Shown in pieces: positions 30,425 through 49,627 of a stretch of 56,571 bases of DNA; position 1 is the stretch's first letter, and each line of letters opens with the position of its first letter. Below the pieces are notes generated by a model. That model did no database searches. It was not told where the DNA came from and worked only from the letters and a program-made list of their open reading frames with translations. The position numbers and the translations under genes are program-made. The stretch lies in the IMG/VR virus record IMGVR_UViG_3300042914_004203, positions 1 through 56,571 of that record, one strand, 5' to 3'. The DNA comes from a virus. Its lineage: Duplodnaviria; Caudoviricetes.

Positions 30425-32056
30425 TTATCTAGTTTCTCGCCACTGAATTGAAGCAAAACTACTTGTAGGATATGTTCCAGCTGAATCAATTCCTGATGCA
30501 ACCATAACAAATATATTACTATCATTACTATCTATATTTTGACTAATGTAACCTCGTTTTGCGCTTCCGATAGCTGGATTAGATGATTGACTTGAAAATT
30601 TTCCTGCTCCTTGTCCACCAGCAATTACAAAACCATCGTTTATCATTATCCCACTTGTATAATTTACGCTAGTAGCGGTAGCATTATACTCTACAACGCT
30701 CTCATTATTTGAGCTAATCCAATTTCCGCCAATAAGTGATCCTGTGCTTGGTAAACGCCAAAATTCATAAACTATAGGAGCGCCTAATGTAGCTGCATTT
30801 ACATTAAGTGGTCTAACAACGCTTCTATTTGGTTTTCCATAGTAACCAGTTTTTAATGCAATCGCTAATATTGGCACTTTTGATGTTTCATTTACTGCTA
30901 TTGGATTATTATTTCTTGCGCTAAAATCAACGCCCGCTTCATTATAACCACCTTCACTAATAACTGTAGCACAAATTTGATCCATCTTATCTGTTCCAAC
31001 TGCTGTAGTATAATTTCTTACTTCACAACGAATAGGTAAATTTGGATTGCTCCAATAAACGCTTTGTTTATAATTGCTATTGTAAAATTCATGAGCTATT
31101 ATGGAATTACCATCATGTACAAATCCTGCTCTTACTCTACCAACTCCTAACCATTGATAGTCTGCAGTAAATAATTGTGTTTTTGTTATATCTAAATTAA
31201 ATTGAGAAGTTCCATTTCCATTGCATTGATCTGTATTCCAATTATTTTGAGTAACTCTTTGATCATATACAAATCCAGATACATTAGATCTTAAAACAAA
31301 AGATAAAGTGCCATCTCCACTTTGTTCAAAGAATATACCATTATAATCATCAAAAAGACCAATTCTTTTACTTGTGCCAGCTCTATATCCTGTAAAATTA
31401 AAACTTTGAAAAGTTAATTGACTTTTTCCAGGCATGTAGTGATGATACATTCTACTTTGATGAATAGTATAAGCATTTGGTTCTGTTCCTACTGTGAGTA
31501 TTGCTTTTGCTTGATTTATATCAAAAGTTACTGATGAATTTGTTCCACTTGTTTTAGTAAGAAGTTCTATTTCTTCTCCATAAACATGAGAATAGTCAGC
31601 AAGAGTAAATGGATTAGAAATTCTTTGTCTACCAAATGCATCAACATAAGCTGATTGAGATGCAAAATTTGTTACATTAACATCTACCCCATCTGCTAGA
31701 TTATTTTTAATTGAATTTATGTTACTTCCAGCTTCACCACTAATATCAACATTATCAAATTGAGAAGTTAAATCTGCTTGAAAAACTATAGTACCTTGAA
31801 CACCAGCAGGATAAGGATCTCCAGTTATAAAGAGTTTGTCGTCAACGCTATTTGTATCATTTTTGATGCCACTTAAAATTGAATTTGTAGTAGTAAGATT
31901 TACATCAAGACCAGAGATTACTACTCCTTGTCTTAAAATATTTTCAACATCATCTAATTTATTCCAATCTAAACCTTTGAATCCAGTAAAACCTGGTTCT
32001 TCTGTATAAACCTCAACAACATTTTTATTAAAATTTGGATCGTAGATGTTAGACAT
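30425..32056 (-). CDS. Putative structural protein
   Basis: DAFGRQRISNPFTL, YMPGKSQ and WLGVGRVRAGF motifs recognised from large-phage virion proteins. Confidence 0.65.
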   Translation of the reverse strand: MSNIYDPNFNKNVVEVYTEEPGFTGFKGLDWNKLDDVENILRQGVVISGLDVNLTTTNSILSGIKNDTNSVDDKLFITGDPYPAGVQGTIVFQADLTSQFDNVDISGEAGSNINSIKNNLADGVDVNVTNFASQSAYVDAFGRQRISNPFTLADYSHVYGEEIELLTKTSGTNSSVTFDINQAKAILTVGTEPNAYTIHQSRMYHHYMPGKSQLTFQSFNFTGYRAGTSKRIGLFDDYNGIFFEQSGDGTLSFVLRSNVSGFVYDQRVTQNNWNTDQCNGNGTSQFNLDITKTQLFTADYQWLGVGRVRAGFVHDGNSIIAHEFYNSNYKQSVYWSNPNLPIRCEVRNYTTAVGTDKMDQICATVISEGGYNEAGVDFSARNNNPIAVNETSKVPILAIALKTGYYGKPNRSVVRPLNVNAATLGAPIVYEFWRLPSTGSLIGGNWISSNNESVVEYNATATSVNYTSGIMINDGFVIAGGQGAGKFSSQSSNPAIGSAKRGYISQNIDSNDSNIFVMVASGIDSAGTYPTSSFASIQWRETR

Positions 32057-35843: not shown

Positions 35844-36017
35844 ATGAAAGTTAAAGCAAACATCAAGTTCGACCTGAACGAAACCATCCGCAGACTCAAC
35901 GCTATCGCAGAAGGCTACAAAGCCTCTGCTCAACGCCTCGACAACATCGTGGCAGAAGCCCAAGCGAAGAAGGACGAAGCCCATCAGAAGTATATGGGTG
36001 AACCCATCATCAAATAA
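35844..36017 (+). CDS. Small coiled-coil protein (57 aa, not in the ORF track), paralogue of 37578-37723
   Basis: MKVKANIKFDLNETIRRLNAIAEGYKASAQRL...; preceded by TTGCAG-N16-TAGATT-N6-ATG. Confidence 0.75.
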   Translation: MKVKANIKFDLNETIRRLNAIAEGYKASAQRLDNIVAEAQAKKDEAHQKYMGEPIIK

Positions 36018-36058
36018 ATTACTTGACGAAAATCGAACCAAAGGACAAACTAGATCAT

Positions 36059-36478
36059 ATGAAAAACCAAATCACCATCACCAAACAACCCTTCGGCAAC
36101 ACTACCGCTTTCCTCTTGGAAGGCGATAAGAACCACATCGAGAATTTTCACAACGCTATGTATAACCATAGTGCAACCAATGGCGAGTTGCACGATATGG
36201 GCAACGGCAAGGCGTTCTACTTCTACGCACAACCCGAGGCTGTGCTGGAAGCGATGACCAAAGTGGCTCTCTATGCTCTATGCAATAAGATCAAAGCTAA
36301 AGGGATGAAGGGTGGACTTCTCGCCCTTGCAAAGCAGAAGGCACAAGACAAGTTCGATGCGATTAAGGATGGGCGATTCCTTCGCACCAGCATCAGCACC
36401 GATGTCTTTAACCTTGGAAGCATCACCGCAGAGAAGCCTAGCGACTACTGCGGAGCCATCAGCAGCGGGAGAGATTAA
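36059..36478 (+). CDS. Hypothetical protein, family A copy 1
   Basis: Start moved to ATG 36059 because the track's TTG start at 36023 is the -35 box; similar to 38678 and 42594. Confidence 0.75.
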   Translation: MKNQITITKQPFGNTTAFLLEGDKNHIENFHNAMYNHSATNGELHDMGNGKAFYFYAQPEAVLEAMTKVALYALCNKIKAKGMKGGLLALAKQKAQDKFDAIKDGRFLRTSISTDVFNLGSITAEKPSDYCGAISSGRD

Positions 36479-36855
36479 TGACCGCAGAGATTCTTGTTAT
36501 AGCTTTGACCATCCTAGGTGAAGCACGAGGCGAAGGCTTTGAGGGAATGGCGGGTGTTGCGTCTGTCATTCAGACACGAGCCATCGAGCGAAAGCAAACA
36601 CCTACACAAGTCTGCCTTGCACCAAAGCAGTTCAGCTTCTGGAATGGTGGAGTGAGTGAGGCAAAGAAGCAGGAGCTTCTAAAGAACCCACAAGCACCCA
36701 ACGCCATCCGTCTTGCTAAACTTGTAGCAGAGAAACGAATGCCCGATGTTGTGCAGGGAGCAAACCACTACCACACCTTCCAAGTGTCGCCTAAGTGGTC
36801 AAAGGGTGAGAAGCCCATAGCAGTCATTCAGAATCACAAGTTTTACCGTTTGTAA
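36478..36855 (+). CDS. Cell wall hydrolase, SleB/Hydrolase_2 family
   Basis: ALTILGEARGE, VASVI..R, QFSFWN, GANHYH and HKFY motifs. Confidence 0.85.
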   Translation: MTAEILVIALTILGEARGEGFEGMAGVASVIQTRAIERKQTPTQVCLAPKQFSFWNGGVSEAKKQELLKNPQAPNAIRLAKLVAEKRMPDVVQGANHYHTFQVSPKWSKGEKPIAVIQNHKFYRL

Positions 36856-36892
36856 GACTTGACAACAAAGAAAGGTATGATAAACTAAACAT

Positions 36893-37042
36893 ATGAATAA
36901 GACCATCAATAATGAAGAAGTAATCGAGTTAGCTAGCCGTCTAGTTAACATTATCAAAGAGCTAAACAATAACCGCTTCAGCAACACGGCTGGAGTTTAC
37001 CTTAACGAGTTGAGCGATCTACTCAAGACGAGGAGCATTTAA
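36893..37042 (+). CDS. Small hypothetical protein (49 aa, not in the ORF track)
   Basis: TTGACA-N16-TAAACT-N6-ATG; MNKTINNEEVIELASRL... Confidence 0.65.
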   Translation: MNKTINNEEVIELASRLVNIIKELNNNRFSNTAGVYLNELSDLLKTRSI

Positions 37043-37043
37043 C

Positions 37044-37424
37044 ATGATGGCGAGAGCAATACTCATTGACCCATTCACCGAAACAGTCTCACAGGTCACG
37101 CTTGTAGACACTAAACTTCAAACGCTAAAGAACCTCATCGAGTGCGAGATCATCACGATGACAGGTCTCGCTGATGGCGTGGACATGATTCTAGATGATG
37201 AAGGACTCTTGAAAGATTCAGAATCTCAAGCCTACTTCAAGTTCGGGATCGGTTCACAGCCTTTCGCTGGTAAAGCGTTGATCGTTGGAACAAACGACGA
37301 AGGCGAAACTGTTTCTGTCCCCGAAAATGTCACGACCGAAAAAGTTTTCGAGCGTGTGATCTTTTTCAAACCCTCAAAAAAATATCTCGAAGAATCTCTA
37401 GAAATAAAAGTGATGCCTTTTTAA
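37044..37424 (+). CDS. DUF3846-like protein
   Basis: AILIDP, DDEGLL and FAGKALIVG..DEGE motifs. Confidence 0.65.
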   Translation: MMARAILIDPFTETVSQVTLVDTKLQTLKNLIECEIITMTGLADGVDMILDDEGLLKDSESQAYFKFGIGSQPFAGKALIVGTNDEGETVSVPENVTTEKVFERVIFFKPSKKYLEESLEIKVMPF

Positions 37425-37434
37425 CCGCACTTCG

Positions 37435-37509
37435 TAAGTTGTTCAATACCAACGACTTACGCAGGGCGGGTCCCTTACGTTGTAACTCCTTGTCAATCAA
37501 CGAAATTTA
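37435..37509. repeat. Double-palindrome element E2
   Basis: Dyads at 37435-37459 and 37483-37509 with a 23-bp GC-rich spacer. Confidence 0.85.
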
Positions 37510-37577
37510 AATGAAGATTTTTCTTGCGAAAAATGAAAAATGTGATAGATTAAAGGTAGAAAGAAAGAAGAAAAAAA

Positions 37578-37723
37578 TGAAAACAAAAATCAAAATCAAA
37601 TTCGACATCAACGAAACAATCAAACGCCTTGAAGAAATTTCCAAAGGCTATCAAGAATCCGCAAAGCGGATGGAAAAAATCATCGTCAAAATGGACGAAA
37701 TCGAAACTCTTAAGAAAGGATAA
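37578..37723 (+). CDS. Small coiled-coil protein, paralogue of 35844-36017
   Basis: MKTKIKIKFDINETIKRLEEISKGYQESAKRM; TTGCGA-N16-TAGATT promoter upstream. Confidence 0.7.
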
Positions 37724-37727
37724 ATCG

Positions 37728-37931
37728 ATGAACATACAAATAAATCCAGAACTATACGAAAACAAAAACATCTGCCGATATGGTCACGACAAGTTGCTCG
37801 TGAAAATCTTCCCTTCCACTATCGGTTGGAAAACTAAAACCGCAACCGCTGAAATCCTCGAAGGAGAGGATAAGGGTAAGTGGACAACCATTTACCTTCG
37901 CAAAGGTTTGTATCCCGTTGATGCTCAATAA
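37728..37931 (+). CDS. Hypothetical protein
   Basis: ATG 4 nt after the previous stop, with AAAGGA upstream. Confidence 0.6.
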   Translation: MNIQINPELYENKNICRYGHDKLLVKIFPSTIGWKTKTATAEILEGEDKGKWTTIYLRKGLYPVDAQ

Positions 37932-37975
37932 GAAATAAAAGTTGACAAAATCAAAAAATCTGATAGGATAAAAGT

Positions 37976-38266
37976 ATGAAAGATAAGAACAAAACAATGC
38001 AACCCGAAATCGGAACCTTCTACCTCTTGACCTATGACAAGACCAAGACCCCTTGGCTTCCTAATGATGAAGTGCTTTTCGTTAAGGATAATGAAACCTT
38101 CATTAAAATCAGCATCAGTCAAGGTGCGGGATATAGCTCCCGATGGGATTGGGCAACCGAAAACGCTGTGACCATCACGAAGCTCGCAACGAATAAACAT
38201 CTCTTGGATCAACTCAACCTCTCGGTTGAAATTGGCAGAGACATCGCCAAAGCGGAAGGAGTCTAA
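37976..38266 (+). CDS. Hypothetical protein
   Basis: TTGACA-N16-TAGGAT-N6-ATG. Confidence 0.7.
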   Translation: MKDKNKTMQPEIGTFYLLTYDKTKTPWLPNDEVLFVKDNETFIKISISQGAGYSSRWDWATENAVTITKLATNKHLLDQLNLSVEIGRDIAKAEGV

Positions 38267-38269
38267 AAA

Positions 38270-38408
38270 GATGAAAAAAATTCTTTTCAAAATAAATAAA
38301 AAAACTTTTCGTCTCGCAGTTTCTCACGGCGAAAAGAAAAACTTTTTGCGTGAAAGATTTTTTTACTATGTTTCTGCGAGTTGCTTGAATCTACGAGACC
38401 TGTTATAA
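38270..38408 (+). CDS. Small basic hypothetical protein (approximate start)
   Basis: MKKILFKINKK... with GGAG upstream; the stop codon overlaps element E3. Confidence 0.4.
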
Positions 38409-38478
38409 GTCTCTAAGCATCAACGACTTACACGCGCAGGGAGGCGCTCTTTGTAAGTGCTTAATAATCAAGAACTTA
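38406..38478. repeat. Double-palindrome element E3
   Basis: Dyads at 38406-38430 and 38454-38478, 23-bp spacer. Confidence 0.85.
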
Positions 38479-38494
38479 TAAATCTTGATCTTTG

Positions 38495-38553
38495 ACCAAA
38501 ACCTGATGGAAGCGAAAAGATCGCAAACGATCTTAAACCAAAACCTGATGGAA
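38495..38553. repeat. 17-bp direct repeat between E3 and E4
   Basis: ACCAAAACCTGATGGAA at 38495-38511 and 38537-38553. Confidence 0.85.
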
Positions 38554-38564
38554 TGCAAAAAATC

Positions 38565-38637
38565 TAAATCTTTGAATATCAAATAGTTACATAAACAAGG
38601 CCCCCGCGCGCGCAAACCCTTGACTATCAACGACTTA
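38565..38637. repeat. Double-palindrome element E4
   Basis: Dyads at 38565-38589 and 38613-38637, 23-bp spacer; TTGACA follows 6 nt later. Confidence 0.8.
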
Positions 38638-38677
38638 CATCGCTTGACAATATATAAAAATCTGATATCCTCTTTTT

Positions 38678-39043
38678 ATGCAAAACAAAATAAGAATCTT
38701 TGCCGAACCTTTTGGCCCCAACCTCGCCTATTTGATTGAGGCAGATTTCGTATCTGCTGAAAGATTCTATAATGCTATTTATAATTTCGGCGGAACAAAT
38801 TACAAATTACAAGATCGTGGAAGCGGAAAAGCATTTTACTTTTATGCCGAACCAGCAAAGTTTCGCAGGGCTTTATCTCTCGCACTCGCCACGAATCTCG
38901 AATCATCTTTTGCTCAAGGCGATTGGAATTCTCACGCAGAAGCGTTGGCAGACCAAATAATTTCAGAAATAAAACCAGCAACTTTTGTAAGGCGTTGTCA
39001 TTCAATGGAATATTCTTATAGAAAATCTTTGACAGAATCATAA
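38678..39043 (+). CDS. Hypothetical protein, family A copy 2
   Basis: PFG, FYNAIYNFGGTN and GKAFYFYAEP match 36059; TTGACA-N16-TATCCT-N6-ATG. Confidence 0.75.
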   Translation: MQNKIRIFAEPFGPNLAYLIEADFVSAERFYNAIYNFGGTNYKLQDRGSGKAFYFYAEPAKFRRALSLALATNLESSFAQGDWNSHAEALADQIISEIKPATFVRRCHSMEYSYRKSLTES

Positions 39044-39062
39044 TCTGTGATACATTACCTAT

Positions 39063-39287
39063 ATGAACCAAAACGACATATCATATCTAGCCTCGATTAA
39101 CTGCACCGAAGCCTTTGCTGATGCGGAGGCGTTCTTCGACTACATCAACTCCCCTGATGTAATCAACGAAATGCTCAACAAGATGGCTCCCTGTTACGAT
39201 GAGAGGGATACCGAGGTCACCAACTTCTTCGGCGCGAAGGCTGTTCCTTTTCGCCTCACCTGTCAGAATGGAATGGAGGTCAAATAA
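39063..39287 (+). CDS. Hypothetical protein
   Basis: TTGACA-N16-TACATT-N6-ATG. Confidence 0.7.
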   Translation: MNQNDISYLASINCTEAFADAEAFFDYINSPDVINEMLNKMAPCYDERDTEVTNFFGAKAVPFRLTCQNGMEVK

Positions 39288-39288
39288 C

Positions 39289-39561
39289 ATGGACTACAAA
39301 GCCTCTCTCAAGGAGTGGATGAACCAGCATATGCTGACTCGGTTAGATGTGCGCGACATCCTTAACGAGATGACGCGTGATGACGAGCGCATCCTCGCAT
39401 CTTCTCAATCTAACCTCTCTGATGTAAATGAATCGATGGATGGTGACTTCGATTCTGCTATGGCCTCTGCTGGTCACGGAACCGATGAGGACTATGGTGG
39501 TGGATGCTACCAGATGGAAGACTTCGGTTGGGCTGGTGATCCAGAAATTTGTGGAGAATAA
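39289..39561 (+). CDS. Acidic hypothetical protein
   Basis: Start moved to ATG 39289 (GGAGG upstream); DGDFDSAMASAGHGTDEDYG motif. Confidence 0.65.
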   Translation: MDYKASLKEWMNQHMLTRLDVRDILNEMTRDDERILASSQSNLSDVNESMDGDFDSAMASAGHGTDEDYGGGCYQMEDFGWAGDPEICGE

Positions 39562-39562
39562 C

Positions 39563-39676
39563 ATGGAAAAATATATACTCGCAATCGCTGGGCTTGGGCT
39601 TTTCTTTGTTGCCCTCGCTCTATTAGAAACCCTTATCAACTTTGGCCTCTGGCTTTGGGAACATAAACGTAAGTAG
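39563..39676 (+). CDS. Small membrane protein
   Basis: MEKYILAIAGLGLFFVAL...; GGAG upstream; the stop codon overlaps element E5. Confidence 0.55.
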   Translation: MEKYILAIAGLGLFFVALALLETLINFGLWLWEHKRK

Positions 39677-39742
39677 TTAAGTATCAACGACTTACGGCGC
39701 GGGGGAGCGGCCTTGCGTAAGTCTTTAAGTATCAATAACTTA
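39670..39742. repeat. Double-palindrome element E5
   Basis: Dyads at 39670-39694 and 39718-39742, 23-bp spacer; near the point where plus- and minus-strand gene blocks converge. Confidence 0.85.
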
Positions 39743-39957
39743 CATTGAAGCTCGCCAACCTTCAAAAAATTCGTCTATCTCTCTTTCTTTTTGCAGAAAA
39801 GTTTTGTTTGAATCTAGAGGGGGATTATCGTTATCGCTCCACGGATAAAAAGTTTCAAGATTTTCGTTTAATAGTTTTTCGATGTTCATTTTGATATGAT
39901 AAAAGTTGTAATAATTCCTAGAATAATTAAAGCAATAAATGTTTCCATTGAGACATC

Positions 39958-40593
39958 TTAATGCTTTTTGTAGTTAATTGCAAACTCTGTTTTGTGCCAG
40001 CATGCACGACACGAACCGCACTTGTTCCCTTGTTTCGATGAAGGGCAATTAAATTCTCCCTTGTTGCTTGCACCGCTAACGCAGAGGCCAAGTCTCTCAG
40101 CCAATCCTACCGGTGCGGGGCCGTTCATCATAAGAGCAGATAAACGAATCGTAAGATTAAAAGGAACTTCACCGCCTTTTGCTATATACTCTGAAACGAA
40201 AGAGTATTCACGAGTAGGCAACCAAAAAGAAATATGCGGAAGGTTTTTAGCAATCTTAACAATCTTCTCAAGATGCCAAATGCCTTGCAAATCTCCCGAA
40301 TCGTGCCAACGGAAGTGAGGGTTGTTTGCTTTACCAATAAGGTAAGTCATCGCATCCACCCAAAGATCGTGAGTAAGAGAAGCGAAACGCTTTTCCATCG
40401 CCGCTTGAACATTAGGGAAAACATAACGCCCTTTAAGAGCATAGCAGAACGCGCAAATGCTTCCCGCAACTTGACGCATTTTTTGCCCGATGATGCAACG
40501 CTTTGCGGGCGTTGAATAAGCATACCCTGGCATCTTTGAAGGTTTAGATAGTGTGCCGACAATAGCTTCGGCTTGCTTTTTGTTTTTGAACAT
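39958..40593 (-). CDS. Gp88-like Cys-rich phage protein
   Basis: SKMPG, CAFCYA, FRWHDSGD, WLPTRE, IRLS and CxxCxxCW motifs; TTGTCA-N16-TAAAGT-N6-ATG. Confidence 0.75.
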   Translation of the reverse strand: MFKNKKQAEAIVGTLSKPSKMPGYAYSTPAKRCIIGQKMRQVAGSICAFCYALKGRYVFPNVQAAMEKRFASLTHDLWVDAMTYLIGKANNPHFRWHDSGDLQGIWHLEKIVKIAKNLPHISFWLPTREYSFVSEYIAKGGEVPFNLTIRLSALMMNGPAPVGLAERLGLCVSGASNKGEFNCPSSKQGNKCGSCRACWHKTEFAINYKKH

Positions 40594-40641
40594 AAAAATA
40601 CTTTATCAGTTTTTTTTCTTGTGACAAGTTTTTTCTGCAGT

Positions 40642-40716
40642 TAAATCTCGTTCAATATCAATGACTTACGCACGCAGGGACCCCGCTTCTGTAAGTGCTT
40701 GATAGTAAAAGACTTA
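40642..40716. repeat. Double-palindrome element E6
   Basis: Dyads at 40642-40668 and 40692-40716, 23-bp spacer; overlaps the tRNA-Glu 3' end. Confidence 0.85.
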
Positions 40717-40786
40717 GGGCTAAACGGATTCGAACCGATACACCCTCATTGAAAGCGAGGAGTCCTAACCATTAGACGATAGCCCC
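40715..40786 (-). tRNA. tRNA-Glu(TTC)
   Basis: Acceptor GGGGCTA/TAGCCCT, anticodon arm CCTCG-CTTTCAA-TGAGG, GGTTCGAATCC T-arm; CCA not encoded. Confidence 0.9.
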
Positions 40787-40876
40787 AAAATATAGTATTT
40801 AACTTATTATATTAGGTATTTTTGTATTTATCAATTACTATTTGCTATTTTGTGTAATCTACTTTAGAATTTAGAT

Positions 40877-41059
40877 ATGAACTCAAAAGTCAGCGGTATA
40901 CTAGAAAACTCTGCATTATATAAACAATTCCTCAAAGAACGAGAAGAGATATTAAAACACAAGTGGATTGAAAGCGAGAAAGCTGGCCACGACGTAGGAT
41001 TTGAATGGGCTTTGCTTGATTGGAATTTTAATTATAGAAATGGTTGGAAAAATAAATAA
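40877..41059 (+). CDS. DUF4032-like small protein
   Basis: EREEILKHKWIESEKAGHDVGFEWALLDW; plus-strand GTGTAA at 40852-40857. Confidence 0.7.
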   Translation: MNSKVSGILENSALYKQFLKEREEILKHKWIESEKAGHDVGFEWALLDWNFNYRNGWKNK

Positions 41060-41186
41060 TTCTTCCGCTCTCTCTGCTCTAGAATCAGAGAAAATATATA
41101 CCCACCTTTAATTGCCTCAGACTCTGGGCATTGGGGCTTCAATGGCTTTATGGAGGAAGTCATACTCACTCATTGCGGAAAGAACT
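41058..41186 (-). ncRNA. Candidate ~130-nt structured small RNA
   Basis: TTGCAC-N16-TAAGAT promoter with no ATG at +1; ends pair (AGUUCUUUCCGC/GCGGAAGAAUU) and enclose three hairpins. Confidence 0.5.
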
Positions 41187-41274
41187 TTAGTTATCTTAAC
41201 ATAGTTTAATTTTAGTGCAATAAAAAAGGCAAGATTTTTTAGGTCTCGCCCTTTCTATAAATATCTCTCTGTTG

Positions 41275-41535
41275 TTAAACTGGCGAGAGACCTCCAGCAA
41301 TTCTGTCATAACGGAACTGACGATGTCCAAATCCGTCACGACCAGAGAAGCACCAAGAAATGAAAAGTTTGTTTCCAGTCTTAGATACATAACGAGTGGT
41401 AGGAACGCCAACGATGTAAGTATAAACCTCGGTTCCATTGTAAGGCTTATAGTTGATGATATACCGCTGTCCTAAAATAAAATAGAACAGACCCTTAATC
41501 ATCTCCCAATAGGTGATGTTGTTTTGTTTCTTCAT
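41275..41535 (-). CDS. Hypothetical protein
   Basis: TTGCAG-N16-TATGAT-N6-ATG; ends with RQFRYDRI, resembling the WYL-domain RxFRxDRI motif. Confidence 0.65.
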   Translation of the reverse strand: MKKQNNITYWEMIKGLFYFILGQRYIINYKPYNGTEVYTYIVGVPTTRYVSKTGNKLFISWCFSGRDGFGHRQFRYDRIAGGLSPV

Positions 41536-41573
41536 TTAATAATCATACCATAATTTGTTTTCTCTGCAAGAAA

Positions 41574-41648
41574 TAAATCTCGTTGTCCATCAACGACTTA
41601 CGCGGCGAGAGTCCCCGCCGATGTAACTACTTAATAATCAACAACTTA
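41574..41648. repeat. Double-palindrome element E7
   Basis: Dyads at 41574-41600 and 41624-41648, 23-bp spacer. Confidence 0.85.
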
Positions 41649-41659
41649 CAAAAGTTAAG

Positions 41660-41821
41660 TTATTCTTCTGATTCTTTCCAATTTGGATGCGCTTTAGCCC
41701 ACTTAACGAAAACAACTTCCAACTCTGCTAAATATTTCTCTATTTGAGCAATGAGTTTAGGATCTTCATCTTTAAGAACTCTTTTCTCTAGGATCTTGCT
41801 GATTCTATTCTCATGCTTCAT
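41660..41821 (-). CDS. Small hypothetical protein (53 aa, not in the ORF track)
   Basis: MKHENRISKILEKRVLKDEDP...; ends 11 nt before E7. Confidence 0.5.
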   Translation of the reverse strand: MKHENRISKILEKRVLKDEDPKLIAQIEKYLAELEVVFVKWAKAHPNWKESEE

Positions 41822-42048
41822 ATATATTATTTTACAGTGCTATGAGAAATATTTCAATTATTATTTTCGATATGAATGATTTTTGGGAAAAATTATTTTA
41901 GATGTGTAATTATAATTTTCGAAACCTCTATCCAAAGTCCCCACGATATACTTCCACAAATCATAAAAAGAAAAATCCACCAAAAATTTCTTTCAAACCA
42001 TCTCACATAAAAGTCTTACAGGTAAAAAAATCTTTTGGGAAAAATTCT

Positions 42049-43255: not shown

Positions 43256-43349
43256 TGGTACGAGGGGAAGGATTCGAACCTTCATTTTGCTCAAATCTAG
43301 AGCGACCAGAGTATAAGTCTGGGGTCTTAACCAGTTAGACGACCCTCGC
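43256..43349 (-). tRNA. tRNA with TAT anticodon (nominally Ile) and a long variable arm
   Basis: Acceptor GCGAGGG/CCCTCGT plus ACCA, anticodon arm CCAGA-CTTATAC-TCTGG, ~22-nt variable region with a GCTC/GAGC stem, T-arm GAAGG-TTCGAAT-CCTTC. Confidence 0.85.
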
Positions 43350-47606: not shown

Positions 47607-47813
47607 TTATATTTTGTCAATCCTCGATGCTTTGAAGCTTTCGCATTCGAATCCTGTGAAATCTTTTATTGCTTGACCGCCCCTGCAGTTCAAGTTGCCA
47701 AAGCCTTTGTCCGCTTGATATTTACTTAAATCAACATAAATAGTATTTGGTAAGATACCATTAATAATACCATTAGGTTGCTTGTAGACTATATCGTATA
47801 ATTTGTATCTCAT
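47607..47813 (-). CDS. Hypothetical protein
   Basis: Start moved to ATG 47813 because the longer ORF runs through tRNA-Thr. Confidence 0.55.
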   Translation of the reverse strand: MRYKLYDIVYKQPNGIINGILPNTIYVDLSKYQADKGFGNLNCRGGQAIKDFTGFECESFKASRIDKI

Positions 47814-47821
47814 ATTTAACG

Positions 47822-47893
47822 AGCCAGAAATCGGATTCGAACCGATGACCTGCGGTTTACAAAACCGCTGCACTACCGCTGTGCTATTCTGGC
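47822..47893 (-). tRNA. tRNA-Thr(TGT)
   Basis: Acceptor GCCAGAA/TTCTGGC, anticodon arm GCGGT-TTTGTAA-ACCGC. Confidence 0.9.
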
Positions 47894-47914
47894 CTATTTA
47901 TTATTATGATACTA

Positions 47915-48112
47915 TTATTTTACTTTTTCAAGGATATCTTGTTCTTTTACCCATTGAACATAAACTAAATCAACAAATATTTCATATCTAATACTATAGT
48001 CCCAATTTAAATTTGCTTGTCTTATATTAATTATTTCACCAATTACTATTTCATTATTGTAAATGCACTTATATTTTACTTTATCTCCAACCTTGTATTT
48101 AGGATTACTCAT
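47915..48112 (-). CDS. Small SH3/KOW-like protein
   Basis: PKYKVGDKV...WVKEQDI pattern. Confidence 0.6.
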   Translation of the reverse strand: MSNPKYKVGDKVKYKCIYNNEIVIGEIINIRQANLNWDYSIRYEIFVDLVYVQWVKEQDILEKVK

Positions 48113-48229
48113 AGACTTAATAAAAATTTAGCTATGCCAAATATTATAAGTCCGATAATCAAAGTAAATATATATTCTGAGCCGTCTTTCATTTAATTCT
48201 CTAAAAGCTAAGTATATAAAAAGACCCCC

Positions 48230-48285
48230 TGTACCGAGGTAGATGCCGCCGACCCATTTCGGATCAGCGGTTAGGCCTCGGCACA
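48230..48285 (-). other. Strong GC-rich nested hairpin 3' of the intron-like core
   Basis: GUGCCGAGG/CCUCGGUAC outer stem and CCGCUGAUCC-GAAAU-GGGUCGGCGG inner stem, followed by GGGGGUCUUUUU. Confidence 0.65.
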
Positions 48286-48286
48286 C

Positions 48287-48530
48287 CTTAATTGTTAAAC
48301 TTATTATTGTTAATTCTAATAAGAGCGGACTGTATAATGCTACTATAATATCACTAATATAGTAGTTGGGTCAGAATGATAGATTATTGTTGGAATCTCA
48401 CTATCTCAGTCTCTACACCTTCCTATCAACATAAATTCCAGATAGGCTTGGCTCGGTAATGTCATCTCAGATTTCTACCGAATTTACTCCACTTTCTACA
48501 TACTTAGTTTTTAAAGAACTACTAAGTATT
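48287..48530 (-). ncRNA. Group I intron-like ribozyme core (boundaries approximate, no host gene seen)
   Basis: P AAAUUCGGUAGAA (48473-48485), Q AUUACCGAGCCAAGC (48446-48460), R GAAGGUGUAGAGACUG (48407-48422) and S UAUACAGUCC (48327-48336) in the right order; P4, P6, P7, P8 and P9 all pair. Confidence 0.75.
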
Positions 48531-48554
48531 ACACTCAAAAATAAAAGAAAAATA

Positions 48555-48915
48555 TGGTTTCGGCGACACCAAAAAACGCTCACAGGATATATGGCTTTAG
48601 CAGGGTTCCGCTTTACTAAAGCATCCAATCTGTGATCTAATACGGAAAATTTTCCACTGGCATCTCAGTGCCCCAACGCACATCTTAGGCCAATGATTCG
48701 GTTAGTTCGTCCATGTTTTTTATCGAGGCTTTTAGCGAAATACTTTGCGGTATTTTTCTCGCAAAGGGTATACTTTTCGCTTTAGGTTAACGGACAACCT
48801 TATTAATCTCGCCCCGTTGATATCAAAGAACATACAGGGAACGAAAGACCATCAAGAGATCAACCTCGACATATCTTCCAATACATCCTCTCGCAACCGA
48901 GAGTTTGCCCTGTAT
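48555..48915 (-). ncRNA. Candidate ~360-nt highly structured RNA
   Basis: No ORF over 60 aa on this strand; TTGACG-N17-TAATAT promoter; at least six stems and two pseudoknot pairings; terminal hairpin and U-tract. Confidence 0.6.
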
Positions 48916-49108
48916 CAATATATATTAATTGTTTTTTTATTTTTCGTCAAGTTTTTTTTCTAGTTGATCCACTCCCAATAAATCGCCAAACAAAGCCCCG
49001 AGAAAATTAAAACAATCTCCATATGATAAACTTTTCTCCATTTCTTTTTTGCTCATACAAGTATTATACATCAAATACAATATTTTGTAGAACATTTATT
49101 TTTTTATT

Positions 49109-49180
49109 CTGCCTAAATAGGACTCGAACCTATAACCATACCGTTAACAGCGGTACGCTCTACCATTGAGCTATTAGGCA
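49109..49180 (-). tRNA. tRNA-Asn(GTT)
   Basis: Acceptor TGCCTAA/TTAGGCA, anticodon arm TACCG-CTGTTAA-CGGTA. Confidence 0.9.
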
Positions 49181-49183
49181 AAA

Positions 49184-49249
49184 CGGCGAGGGTTTACGAT
49201 ACCCACAAACGATTCGCTTATTACGGAAGCGACCACCGATGACCTCACC
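49184..49249 (-). ncRNA. tRNA-like element with a GTA loop and non-canonical D and T arms
   Basis: 7-bp GGTGAGG/CCTCGCC stem, TCGCTT-CCGTAAT-AAGCGA arm and GTTTGTG/CGTAAAC arm; 3 nt upstream of tRNA-Asn. Confidence 0.4.
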
Positions 49250-49276
49250 ATCACCTCACATAAATCTTTGTCTACT

Positions 49277-49627
49277 TTAGGCCAATTCTAGTTCGCTGTC
49301 AAGTTTCTTGGTTTTACCCATCCAGCTTTCGGGCATAATGTGTTTGAACCAATCTTGCATCGAAGGAATACGACCCAAATCTTCAACGACATGCTGTTCG
49401 CCAATCCAGCGAGTAGGAATCTTTTTGCCGTTGGATAATGTGATCGTATGACCAAATATCCTCTCACACATAAATATTCCTTCGGCGTGATGACGCAACG
49501 CACGATGACGGAAGTCTGCCATCATCATCTTTGATTCATCGAACCAATCGTGAATCTTCTGATAATCTTCGGGAACGCCTCCCCATTTCTTTGCTGAAGA
49601 TATAGAATGATGGTAAGGGTTAGCCAT
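49277..49627 (-). CDS. DUF6915-like protein
   Basis: PYHHSISSAKKWGG, IHDWFDESK, RHRALRHH and EQHVVEDLG motifs. Confidence 0.75.
   Translation of the reverse strand: MANPYHHSISSAKKWGGVPEDYQKIHDWFDESKMMMADFRHRALRHHAEGIFMCERIFGHTITLSNGKKIPTRWIGEQHVVEDLGRIPSMQDWFKHIMPESWMGKTKKLDSELELA

Follow-up and report, generated by a model that had tools for sequence, protein, structure and literature searches.

A Structured, Pseudoknotted Non-Coding RNA with Its Own Promoter Belongs to a Modular Family of Uncultured Lake Phages

Introduction

Large, intricately folded RNAs of unknown function are rare, and three of them, GOLLD, ROOL and OLE, build unexpected RNA-only assemblies. ROOL is about 580 nt in length. 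Other phage RNAs are smaller. Species 1 and 2 of phage T4 (rnaC and rnaD) are small stable non-coding RNAs encoded in the tRNA cluster; their role is unknown, and it may be tRNA processing that releases them. In phage HK022, the put RNAs are about 70 nt long and comprise two hairpins. They are promoter-proximal, and act on their own transcription complex.

GOLLD and ROOL come from phage or prophage genomes, in many cases close to tRNA islands, and adopt complex pseudoknotted folds; many GOLLD members exceed 800 nt (PMC12286853). Structured RNAs have also been collected in bulk from viral sequence. Fremin and Bhatt (2023; PMC10690425) describe 8,495 unnamed structured-RNA candidates from IMG/VR, with lengths of 29-151 nt and a median of 65 nt.

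We have studied a locus on a 56.6-kb fragment of an uncultured phage, the whole of which (56,571 nt) is referred to here as the window. The fragment has a GC content of ~31% and a CheckV completeness of ~36%. Among its genes are those for a large terminase, PhoH and a virion protein, but the majority have no assigned function. An earlier note, made from the letters of this DNA, had proposed that it encodes a pseudoknotted RNA of ~360 nt, transcribed from its own promoter. This proposal is supported by the covariation of the fold and by the promoter. We conclude that positions 48555-48915 of the window (minus strand) constitute an independent gene, whose product is a structured, pseudoknotted non-coding RNA transcribed from a promoter of its own. 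The RNA is a member of a modular, as yet uncatalogued family that is found in a single clade of large uncultured lake phages.

Results

The RNA Gene, Its Promoter and Its Ends

The features of the locus are collected in Table 1. Homology to relatives spans the whole of 48555-48915 in BLAST comparisons and breaks off at ~48538. The start of the RNA lies ~7 nt past a predicted TTGACG-N17-TAATAT promoter. The earlier note had placed +1 at about 48915, exactly where the first stem begins, and both promoter prediction and the relatives are consistent with this. A match to TTGAC-N17/18-[TA]AnnnT ending 5-8 nt before the first stem (P1) is present in 70/70 relatives with sufficient upstream sequence, the remaining 6 of 76 running off the ends of their contigs, and P1 begins at the predicted +1 in every member for which upstream sequence is available.

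Table 1. Features of the RNA Locus and of Lone Copies of the 5′ Module
Feature	Position	Strand	Remarks
RNA gene	48555..48915	-	361 nt; from predicted +1 (first base of P1) to invariant ...GAAACCA; ends inferred
Sigma-70-type promoter of the RNA, TTGACG-N17-TAATAT	48922..48950	-	9/12 consensus matches (promoter prediction)
5′ three-way-junction module	48832..48915	-	P1, 48908-48915 with 48832-48839; P2 hairpin, 48884-48907; P3 hairpin, 48843-48879
Insert domain, long form only	48654..48831	-	Absent from 52 short forms
Pseudoknot 5′ strand, UUCCGU	48642..48647	-	Pairs with 48606-48611
P5 outer stem (UCACAG.../...CUGUGA) enclosing P6 hairpin	48580..48635	-	P6, 48616-48622 with 48594-48600
Pseudoknot 3′ strand, GCGGAA, in P6 loop	48606..48611	-	Pairs with 48642-48647
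Invariant tail, GAGCGUUUUUUGGUGUCGCCGAAACCA	48555..48581	-	27 nt, ends ACCA; nearly invariant across the family
U-rich tract after tail	48541..48554	-	From sequence; possible 3′ end or processing region
Linked micro-ORF, MSKKEMEKSLSYGD...	48937..49056	-	39 aa; last codons overlap the RNA promoter
Micro-ORF promoter, TCTACA-N17-TATAAT	49063..49091	-	-10 ends 6 nt before ATG: leaderless layout
Group-I-intron-like insertion	48208..48529	-	~320 nt; not part of the RNA family; 8-bp ATACTTAG flanking repeats
tRNA-Asn	49108-49181	-	ARAGORN, Rfam
tRNA-Thr	47821-47893	-	ARAGORN, Rfam
Lone 5′ junction, L030	2556-2653	-	R2
Lone 5′ junction, L025	2538-2635	-	R2
Lone 5′ junction, L040	3043-3128	-	R2
Lone 5′ junction, L027	2261-2348	-	R2
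Lone 5′ junction, L021	2511-2603	+	R2

No canonical terminator is predicted at the 3′ end of the RNA, the next one lying at 48240-48224. The RNA could therefore be the first part of longer transcripts.

The RNA is non-coding, because minus-strand reading frames within the stretch do not exceed 33 aa and because insertions and deletions among the relatives do not come in threes. The predicted folding energy is only weakly distinguished from that of shuffled sequences, and to a similar extent on both strands (z = -2.56 for the minus strand and -2.93 for the plus strand), so that the case rests on comparison with relatives. That comparison also bears on the strand. There are many changes from U-A to U-G (for example UA:38/UG:14 among the short forms described below), which would be C-A mismatches on the other strand; this fits an RNA read from the minus strand, in agreement with the direction of the promoter.

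Metatranscriptome contigs of 166-205 nt cover positions 48681-48903 with at least 99% identity (4/4 runs, from three studies), and one loose contig end in RNA libraries matches another variant of the family. The RNA is thus present in RNA libraries, samples that can contain DNA and whose contigs give no strand, ends or level. The lack of contig cover over the 3′ third of the RNA and over both its flanks carries no evidential weight.

Relatives Define a Family Carried by Lake Phages

The first relatives came from a search of viral contigs using the neighboring DUF6915 protein, which gave 59 loci. BLAST found the whole RNA in L002 (91% identity), L003/4/5, L018 and L006 (75-77%), and these full-length relatives adjoin the DUF6915 gene in related phage contigs. 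Eleven further loci matched at the two ends of the RNA only, revealing a short form of ~185 nt. A second search used the near-invariant tail (its 19-nt core) as a pattern across sequence collections. It gave 17 stretches in viral contigs and at least 120 in metagenome contigs, of which at least 71 have the family context. After removal of duplicates there are at least 76 distinct sequences, 70 of them full length with a promoter among the matches listed.

Two size classes make up these 70: a short form of ~185 nt (n = 52) and a long form of ~365-400 nt (n = 18, including the window). The family as a whole ranges from about 185 to 400 nt, and the copy in the window is 361 nt.

The tail pattern, of 17 bases, also matched 55 stretches in prokaryote genomes, a number consistent with the ~70 chance matches estimated for that collection. 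None of the 55 has the family context, from which the family is phage-only. The DNA runs that hold the RNA stretch are lake or freshwater metagenomes, ten of which contain at least half of the sampled words; this DNA may have come from three of these ten. A blastn comparison with 50,697 phage records returned a single irrelevant match of 70 nt, in a terminase gene.

Comparison with Catalogued RNAs

The earlier note could place the RNA in no known class, and searching with covariance models has not changed this. At the gathering score, Rfam 15 found tRNAs and no other family, both in the window and in 12 related loci. Even at E<=10 there was nothing on the RNA (searched over 47700-49400) or on a short-form relative. 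The covariance models of GOLLD (RF01998) and ROOL (RF03087) gave no match at the gathering score in the window or the 12 related loci, and none at E<=10 over 47700-49400 or on the short form. Neither ARAGORN nor the Rfam tRNA and tmRNA models (E<=10) found anything on the RNA. No riboswitch or T-box matched at E<=10 in Rfam, and no conserved gene class lies downstream among the 70 loci. A search of the full-text literature returned no described equivalent that fits. The RNA therefore matches no catalogued RNA family, GOLLD and ROOL included.

The 5′ Module Is a Three-Way Junction

We have analyzed the covariation of the fold in four alignments: A2, comprising the 52 short forms; A3, the 18 long forms; A4, 63 sequences of the 3′ module; and A5, 69 sequences of the 5′ module. 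In A5 the 5′ module is 89.8% paired, and 17 of its 25 pairs have changed on both sides; none of 500 shuffles reached the observed values on four of five measures. The helices P1, P2 and P3 surround junction and loop bases that are invariant. P2 contains a conserved non-standard pair in the middle of its stem, and P3 in the window has 14 bp with one bulged A and an apical loop of sequence GUUGAUCU.

The short forms as a whole (A2) behave in the same way, with 88.7% of cells paired compared with 44-50% when the partners are slid. Twenty-two pairs have changed on both sides, and 0/500 shuffles match these data on four of five measures.

The P3 loops contain palindromes, GGCGCC in 48/70 sequences and GAUC or UGAUCA in 21/70. 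These are only two independent loop types, and a palindrome of at least 6 nt occurs in 16% of random 14-mers of the same composition.

A number of tertiary pairings involving this loop or the tail were considered and rejected. Pairing of GUAUAU in the P3 loop with CCAUAUAUCC, noticed by eye in A2, A3 and A4, is contradicted by uncompensated variants on either side. For pairing of the loop GGCGCC with GGUGUC of the tail, also found by eye, a G-to-A change in the tail of one subtype is uncompensated. In the case of GUUGAU of the P3 loop with the AUCAAC that follows P1, and of a pairing of UUUGAUAUCAA with the tail proposed by RNAalifold, either none of the bases varies or L135 and L151 disrupt the pairing.

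The 3′ Module Contains a Conserved Pseudoknot and Ends in an Invariant Tail

In A4 the 3′ module is 96.3% paired overall with 11 pairs changed on both sides (0/500 shuffles); for the individual helices, P5 is 96.4% paired with three such pairs and P6 95.7% with six. The loop of P6 pairs back to an upstream UUCCGY segment, creating an H-type pseudoknot. This pairing is kept in 73/73 sequences in 10 pair classes, including CCGC/GCGG, CCAC/GUGG, CCUU/AAGG and UCGC/GCGA. By column it is 92.6% paired in A4, and the mean duplex score is 6.42, compared with 4.24 when the loops are shuffled. Judged by these data it is the best-supported pseudoknot of the RNA, and it is absent from the pairings listed in the earlier note.

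The RNA ends in the nearly invariant tail. The core of the tail served as a search pattern, so its conservation is partly a matter of ascertainment. The terminal GAAACCA lies outside that pattern and is nevertheless present in every complete match to the family, once as UAAAACCA. Possible pairs within the tail region, UGGU/ACCA and GCG/CGC, never vary in A4 and thus give no covariation signal in either direction. A search of the window for a target complementary to the tail, with up to three mismatches, found the tail itself and nothing else.

The Long Form Carries an Additional Domain

The long form consists of the short core with a domain of ~180 nt inserted between P1 and the 5′ strand of the pseudoknot. 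Its parts are an AGGUU/AACCU hairpin, with pairing between the hairpin loop and AUGGAC (48790-48796 with 48708-48714), as well as a central hairpin, an invariant ACUAACCGAAUCA and a GUGC/GCAC hairpin. The central helices are AGCGAAA/UUUCGCU enclosing CUUUGCG/CGCAAAG; a sister subtype has different hairpins in the same layout.

Every stem listed in the earlier note maps onto the window sequence where it was said to be. Taken as a whole, this structure has 88.8% of cells paired in A3, compared with 37-49% when the partners are slid by 1-3 columns, and 22/62 pairs have changes on both sides. None of 500 shuffles matches it in percent paired, in double-change pairs, in double-change cells or in covariation score, while 35/500 reach its count of further pair types.

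Individually, the listed pairings differ in how well they are borne out in A3. P1, CUCUCG/CGAGAG, UCACAG/CUGUGA and CUUUAGUA/UGCUAAAG are all supported, and the long-range pairing UGUCCGU/AUGGACG has some support, being 86.8% paired with two covarying pairs. Two others are probably not the pairings that form, to judge from covariation of their competitors. The long-range pairing UCGAGGUU/AGCCUCGA overlaps the local 14-bp P3 hairpin, which RNAalifold prefers and which covaries (AU:10/GC:8, GC:13/AU:5). Similarly CACUG/CAGUG, whose own variation is confined to wobble changes, overlaps the GUGC/GCAC hairpin, in which there are true double changes (UA:9/CG:9, CG:10/UA:8).

The Modules Reassort, and the 5′ Junction Is Found Alone

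Different combinations of P1, P2, P3-loop and 3′-module variants are found across the family. We have built covariance models of the 3′ module (R1) and the 5′ module (R2). The window copy scores 111.6 bits with R1 (48554-48653) and 76.3 bits with R2 (48823-48919); its sequence is in both training alignments, so these matches are by construction and it is the covariation counts that provide independent support. R1 gave one weak additional match in the window (31042-31175, E 0.64), which we treat as noise, and none in 43 more distant DUF6915 loci. With R2, of 97 sources, 93 family loci each proved to have a single copy, the other four being truncated where their contigs stop.

R2 gave five further matches in the set of 43 distant loci, with E values from 3e-10 to 1e-5. 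Four of these (L025, L030, L040 and L027) are lone 5′ junctions, which begin ~6 nt past a TTGAC-type promoter and stop ~10 nt short of the start codon (AUG) of a small ORF. For L030, L025 and L040 this is a Cys-rich, lysine-tailed micro-ORF of ~40 aa (CxxC...CxCxxC), and neither the window nor the family loci contain it; L027 has a different small ORF in first place. The remaining match, L021, is a junction separated by ~30 nt from an AUG, and the 70 nt on its upstream side contain no visible TTGAC-type promoter. Searching Rfam with the junction-only leader at E<=10 gave one chance match, on the opposite strand. The use of the lone 5′ module as a promoter-proximal leader favors a role in cis, at least for this module.

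The Genes Around the RNA

Immediately upstream of the RNA, 68/70 loci have a micro-ORF of 39-60 aa that contains an NLxYGD motif. It is not obligatory, since two of the 70 lack it. None of 42 distant loci, from which the 3′ module is missing as well, contains it, and its co-occurrence with the RNA may reflect only shared ancestry. The micro-ORF has no counterpart in Pfam or PHROG (best E values 0.086 and 0.33, respectively), and no look-alike in the Atlas. TATAAT is found 5-8 nt before its ATG in 61/67 loci, and TAnnnT in 67/67. Several ORFs downstream of the RNA likewise have a -10 box just a few bases ahead of their start codon, which is GTG in some cases. These layouts of the micro-ORF and of the downstream ORFs suggest a host that translates leaderless mRNAs.

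The sequence 3′ of the RNA varies over the 70 loci, being tRNA-Asp or a variety of ORFs, mostly with a -10 box of their own; the RNA is therefore not the leader of one particular gene. Where the tRNA-Asp begins 10-30 nt past the tail (nine loci), it has no visible promoter.

The location between tRNA-Asn and tRNA-Thr described in the earlier note was confirmed, both tRNAs lying on the same strand as the RNA. A tRNA nearby is frequent in the family without being general; one lies within 1 kb in 18/70 loci, and this is a minimum, as the sequence on one side is shorter than 900 nt in 33 loci. According to ARAGORN the window has eight tRNAs in all. One of these, tRNA-Ile with anticodon UAU (43256-43349, minus strand), is unusually long at 94 nt, and was found by Rfam at 43259-43349 with 57.2 bits. 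Adjoining the tRNA cluster is a region (36000-42000) with a GC content of 0.38-0.43, compared with ~0.31 elsewhere, and an AT skew of 0.24 at 36-38 kb. It contains only short overlapping ORFs on both strands, and further non-coding RNAs may lie there.

A Group-I-Like Insertion Is Confined to the Window

Between the RNA gene and a small membrane-protein ORF (48109-48192) lies an insertion resembling a group I intron, whose ends read U|A...G|C. The Rfam Intron_gpI model gives 18.9 bits at 48306-48537, compared with a gathering score of 50. A terminator-like hairpin lies at 48240-48224.

The small ORF downstream encodes a 27-aa hydrophobic peptide (MKDGSEYIFTLIIGLIIFG..., minus strand). It is conserved after the RNA in L018, L079, L128, L132 and L147, where it has a GTG start 7 nt after a TGTAAT box.

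The earlier note had raised the possibility that the RNA is the 5′ exon of this intron-like core, and as a definition of the RNA this does not hold. The core (48195-48535) has no BLAST match in 251 related loci, so the insertion is unique to the window; the sister phages L018, L079, L132 and L147 have an empty site, and the 69 other full-length members are without a core. The family is therefore not an exon of the core by definition. In the window alone, a read-through precursor of ~700 nt is possible, the first canonical terminator being that at 48240-48224.

Discussion

How might this RNA function? The explanation that we prefer as a whole, with belief and doubt in roughly equal measure, is that it is a free-standing structured RNA of a modular lake-phage family, perhaps acting in trans. 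A sigma-70-type promoter sets the predicted +1 at the first base of P1. The conserved core has the P1-P2-P3 junction at its 5′ end, followed by P5 and P6 with their H-type pseudoknot, and finishes with the 27-nt tail ending in ACCA, after which comes the U-rich tract. An RNA of this kind could be abundant and nuclease-resistant, and its invariant loops, junctions and tail might provide a binding platform for a partner, either protein or RNA. The product may be a small ribonucleoprotein or a decoy used during infection.

The separate parts of this explanation are held with differing conviction. That the RNA is a stable species acting in trans, with invariant surfaces that bind a partner, we put forward tentatively, with rather more doubt than belief. 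It is unlikely that the partner is the 39-aa micro-protein encoded directly upstream, and self-association through the palindromic P3 loop (GGCGCC or GAUC) we regard as distinctly unlikely.

The main rival to action in trans is that the RNA is a cis-acting, promoter-proximal element, in which the nascent junction, and perhaps the whole RNA, acts on its own transcript. It might shield the 5′ end against degradation, or alter RNA polymerase so that transcription continues into the downstream tRNA and small genes, in the manner of the HK022 put RNAs. The placement of P1 at +1 in every member would fit such a role, as would the lone junctions, at +1 and ~10 nt before the AUG of a micro-ORF in four distant loci, and in L021 ~30 nt before it with no promoter of the TTGAC type in view. 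Read-through is also what might be expected from the lack of a canonical terminator after the RNA and from the nine tRNA-Asp genes that lie close behind the tail with no visible promoter, and in the window splicing of the insertion directly downstream would need it. Against this, most downstream genes have their own -10 box right after the U tract, and they are not conserved. A leader function would also leave the 3′ pseudoknot module and the invariant tail without a role, and the resemblance to the put RNAs, with their two hairpins in ~70 nt, is one of function only. Overall, we consider action in cis improbable, while giving it more weight than any of the alternatives that follow.

Three other explanations are less likely. 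In the first of these, the RNA would be a sensor resembling a riboswitch or T-box, in which the junction and pseudoknot bind a ligand or the uncharged end of a tRNA, and binding decides whether a weak UGGU/ACCA tail hairpin with the U tract stops transcription. Aptamers typically combine invariant junction and loop bases with stems that covary freely, as is the case here. In addition, UGGU can pair with the ACCA end, and UUCC of the pseudoknot can alternatively pair with a neighboring GGAA or GAAA, the side differing by subtype, which hints at alternative folds. However, no pair of these local alternative hairpins has changed on both sides, the possible tail pairings are without variation, the genes downstream belong to no conserved class, and no T-box or riboswitch matched at E<=10. 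We judge a sensor to be very unlikely.

Equally, the pseudoknotted ACCA end might imitate part of the translation apparatus, serving as a tRNA-like end for RNase P, CCA-adding enzyme or another tRNA-binding factor. The invariance of GAAACCA outside the search pattern would be explained in this way, and the RNA lies among tRNA genes in 18/70 loci. However, neither ARAGORN nor the Rfam tRNA and tmRNA models (E<=10) recognize a tRNA or tmRNA in it, and ACCA may be merely the 3′ strand of the UGGU/ACCA hairpin, so that such mimicry seems highly doubtful. Lastly, the suggestion of the earlier note that the RNA is the 5′ exon or a functional part of a ~700-nt ribozyme precursor draws on a core that begins 25 nt past the tail in the window, on the sole canonical terminator downstream lying at 48240-48224 and on ends like those of group I splice sites, but with a core far below the gathering score and found in none of 251 loci, homology ending at ~48538, empty sites in the sister phages and 69 other full-length members without it, this is extremely unlikely.

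The trans-acting RNA that we prefer has a bolder extension. The family might be a new modular class of phage RNA in which a leader-type junction module has been fused to a pseudoknot-tail module, the whole being an RNA machine that acts on the transcription or translation apparatus of the host. Such a machine may be a sensor, a ribozyme, or an assembly of RNA only or of RNA with the micro-protein. We offer this as speculation, with little expectation that it is correct.

With more than 70 natural variants in two size classes, reassorting modules and a well-supported pseudoknot, the family provides a data set for structure determination. It allows one to ask what such RNAs do in the tRNA and small-gene islands of phages, and the reuse of the 5′ module as a leader elsewhere, together with the tight link to a leaderless micro-ORF, provides handles on function.

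How does the lake-phage RNA compare with the systems already described? Its single hairpins may be among the candidates of Fremin and Bhatt (2023; PMC10690425), which come from the same data source, IMG/VR, and were obtained by the same logic of covariation. Species 1 and 2 of T4 are similar by description only, as non-coding RNAs among phage tRNA genes; the lake-phage RNAs differ in being transcribed from a promoter of their own and in having a tRNA at a distance of 1 kb or less in only 18/70 loci. The likeness to the HK022 put RNAs is again one of description, in that the 5′ junction module begins at +1 and serves by itself as a leader in distantly related phages, whereas no counterpart of the pseudoknot-tail module is known in the put RNAs, which comprise two hairpins in ~70 nt. 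The nearest RNAs by type are GOLLD and ROOL. As they are described in PMC12286853, they share with the lake-phage RNA a phage origin, a complex fold (here pseudoknotted) and a setting among tRNAs, which flank the RNA in the window and lie within 1 kb in 18/70 loci; a further likeness is that the lake-phage RNA is most conserved in its 3′ module and tail and variable in its middle. It differs from them in size, at 185-400 nt compared with more than 800 nt for many GOLLD members, and in giving no covariance-model match. GOLLD and ROOL form homo-oligomeric, RNA-only nanocages; for the lake-phage RNA, the two types of palindromic P3 loop would be at most an indirect hint of such assembly. GOLLD and ROOL are thus the closest counterparts of the lake-phage RNA in kind, and not its relatives.
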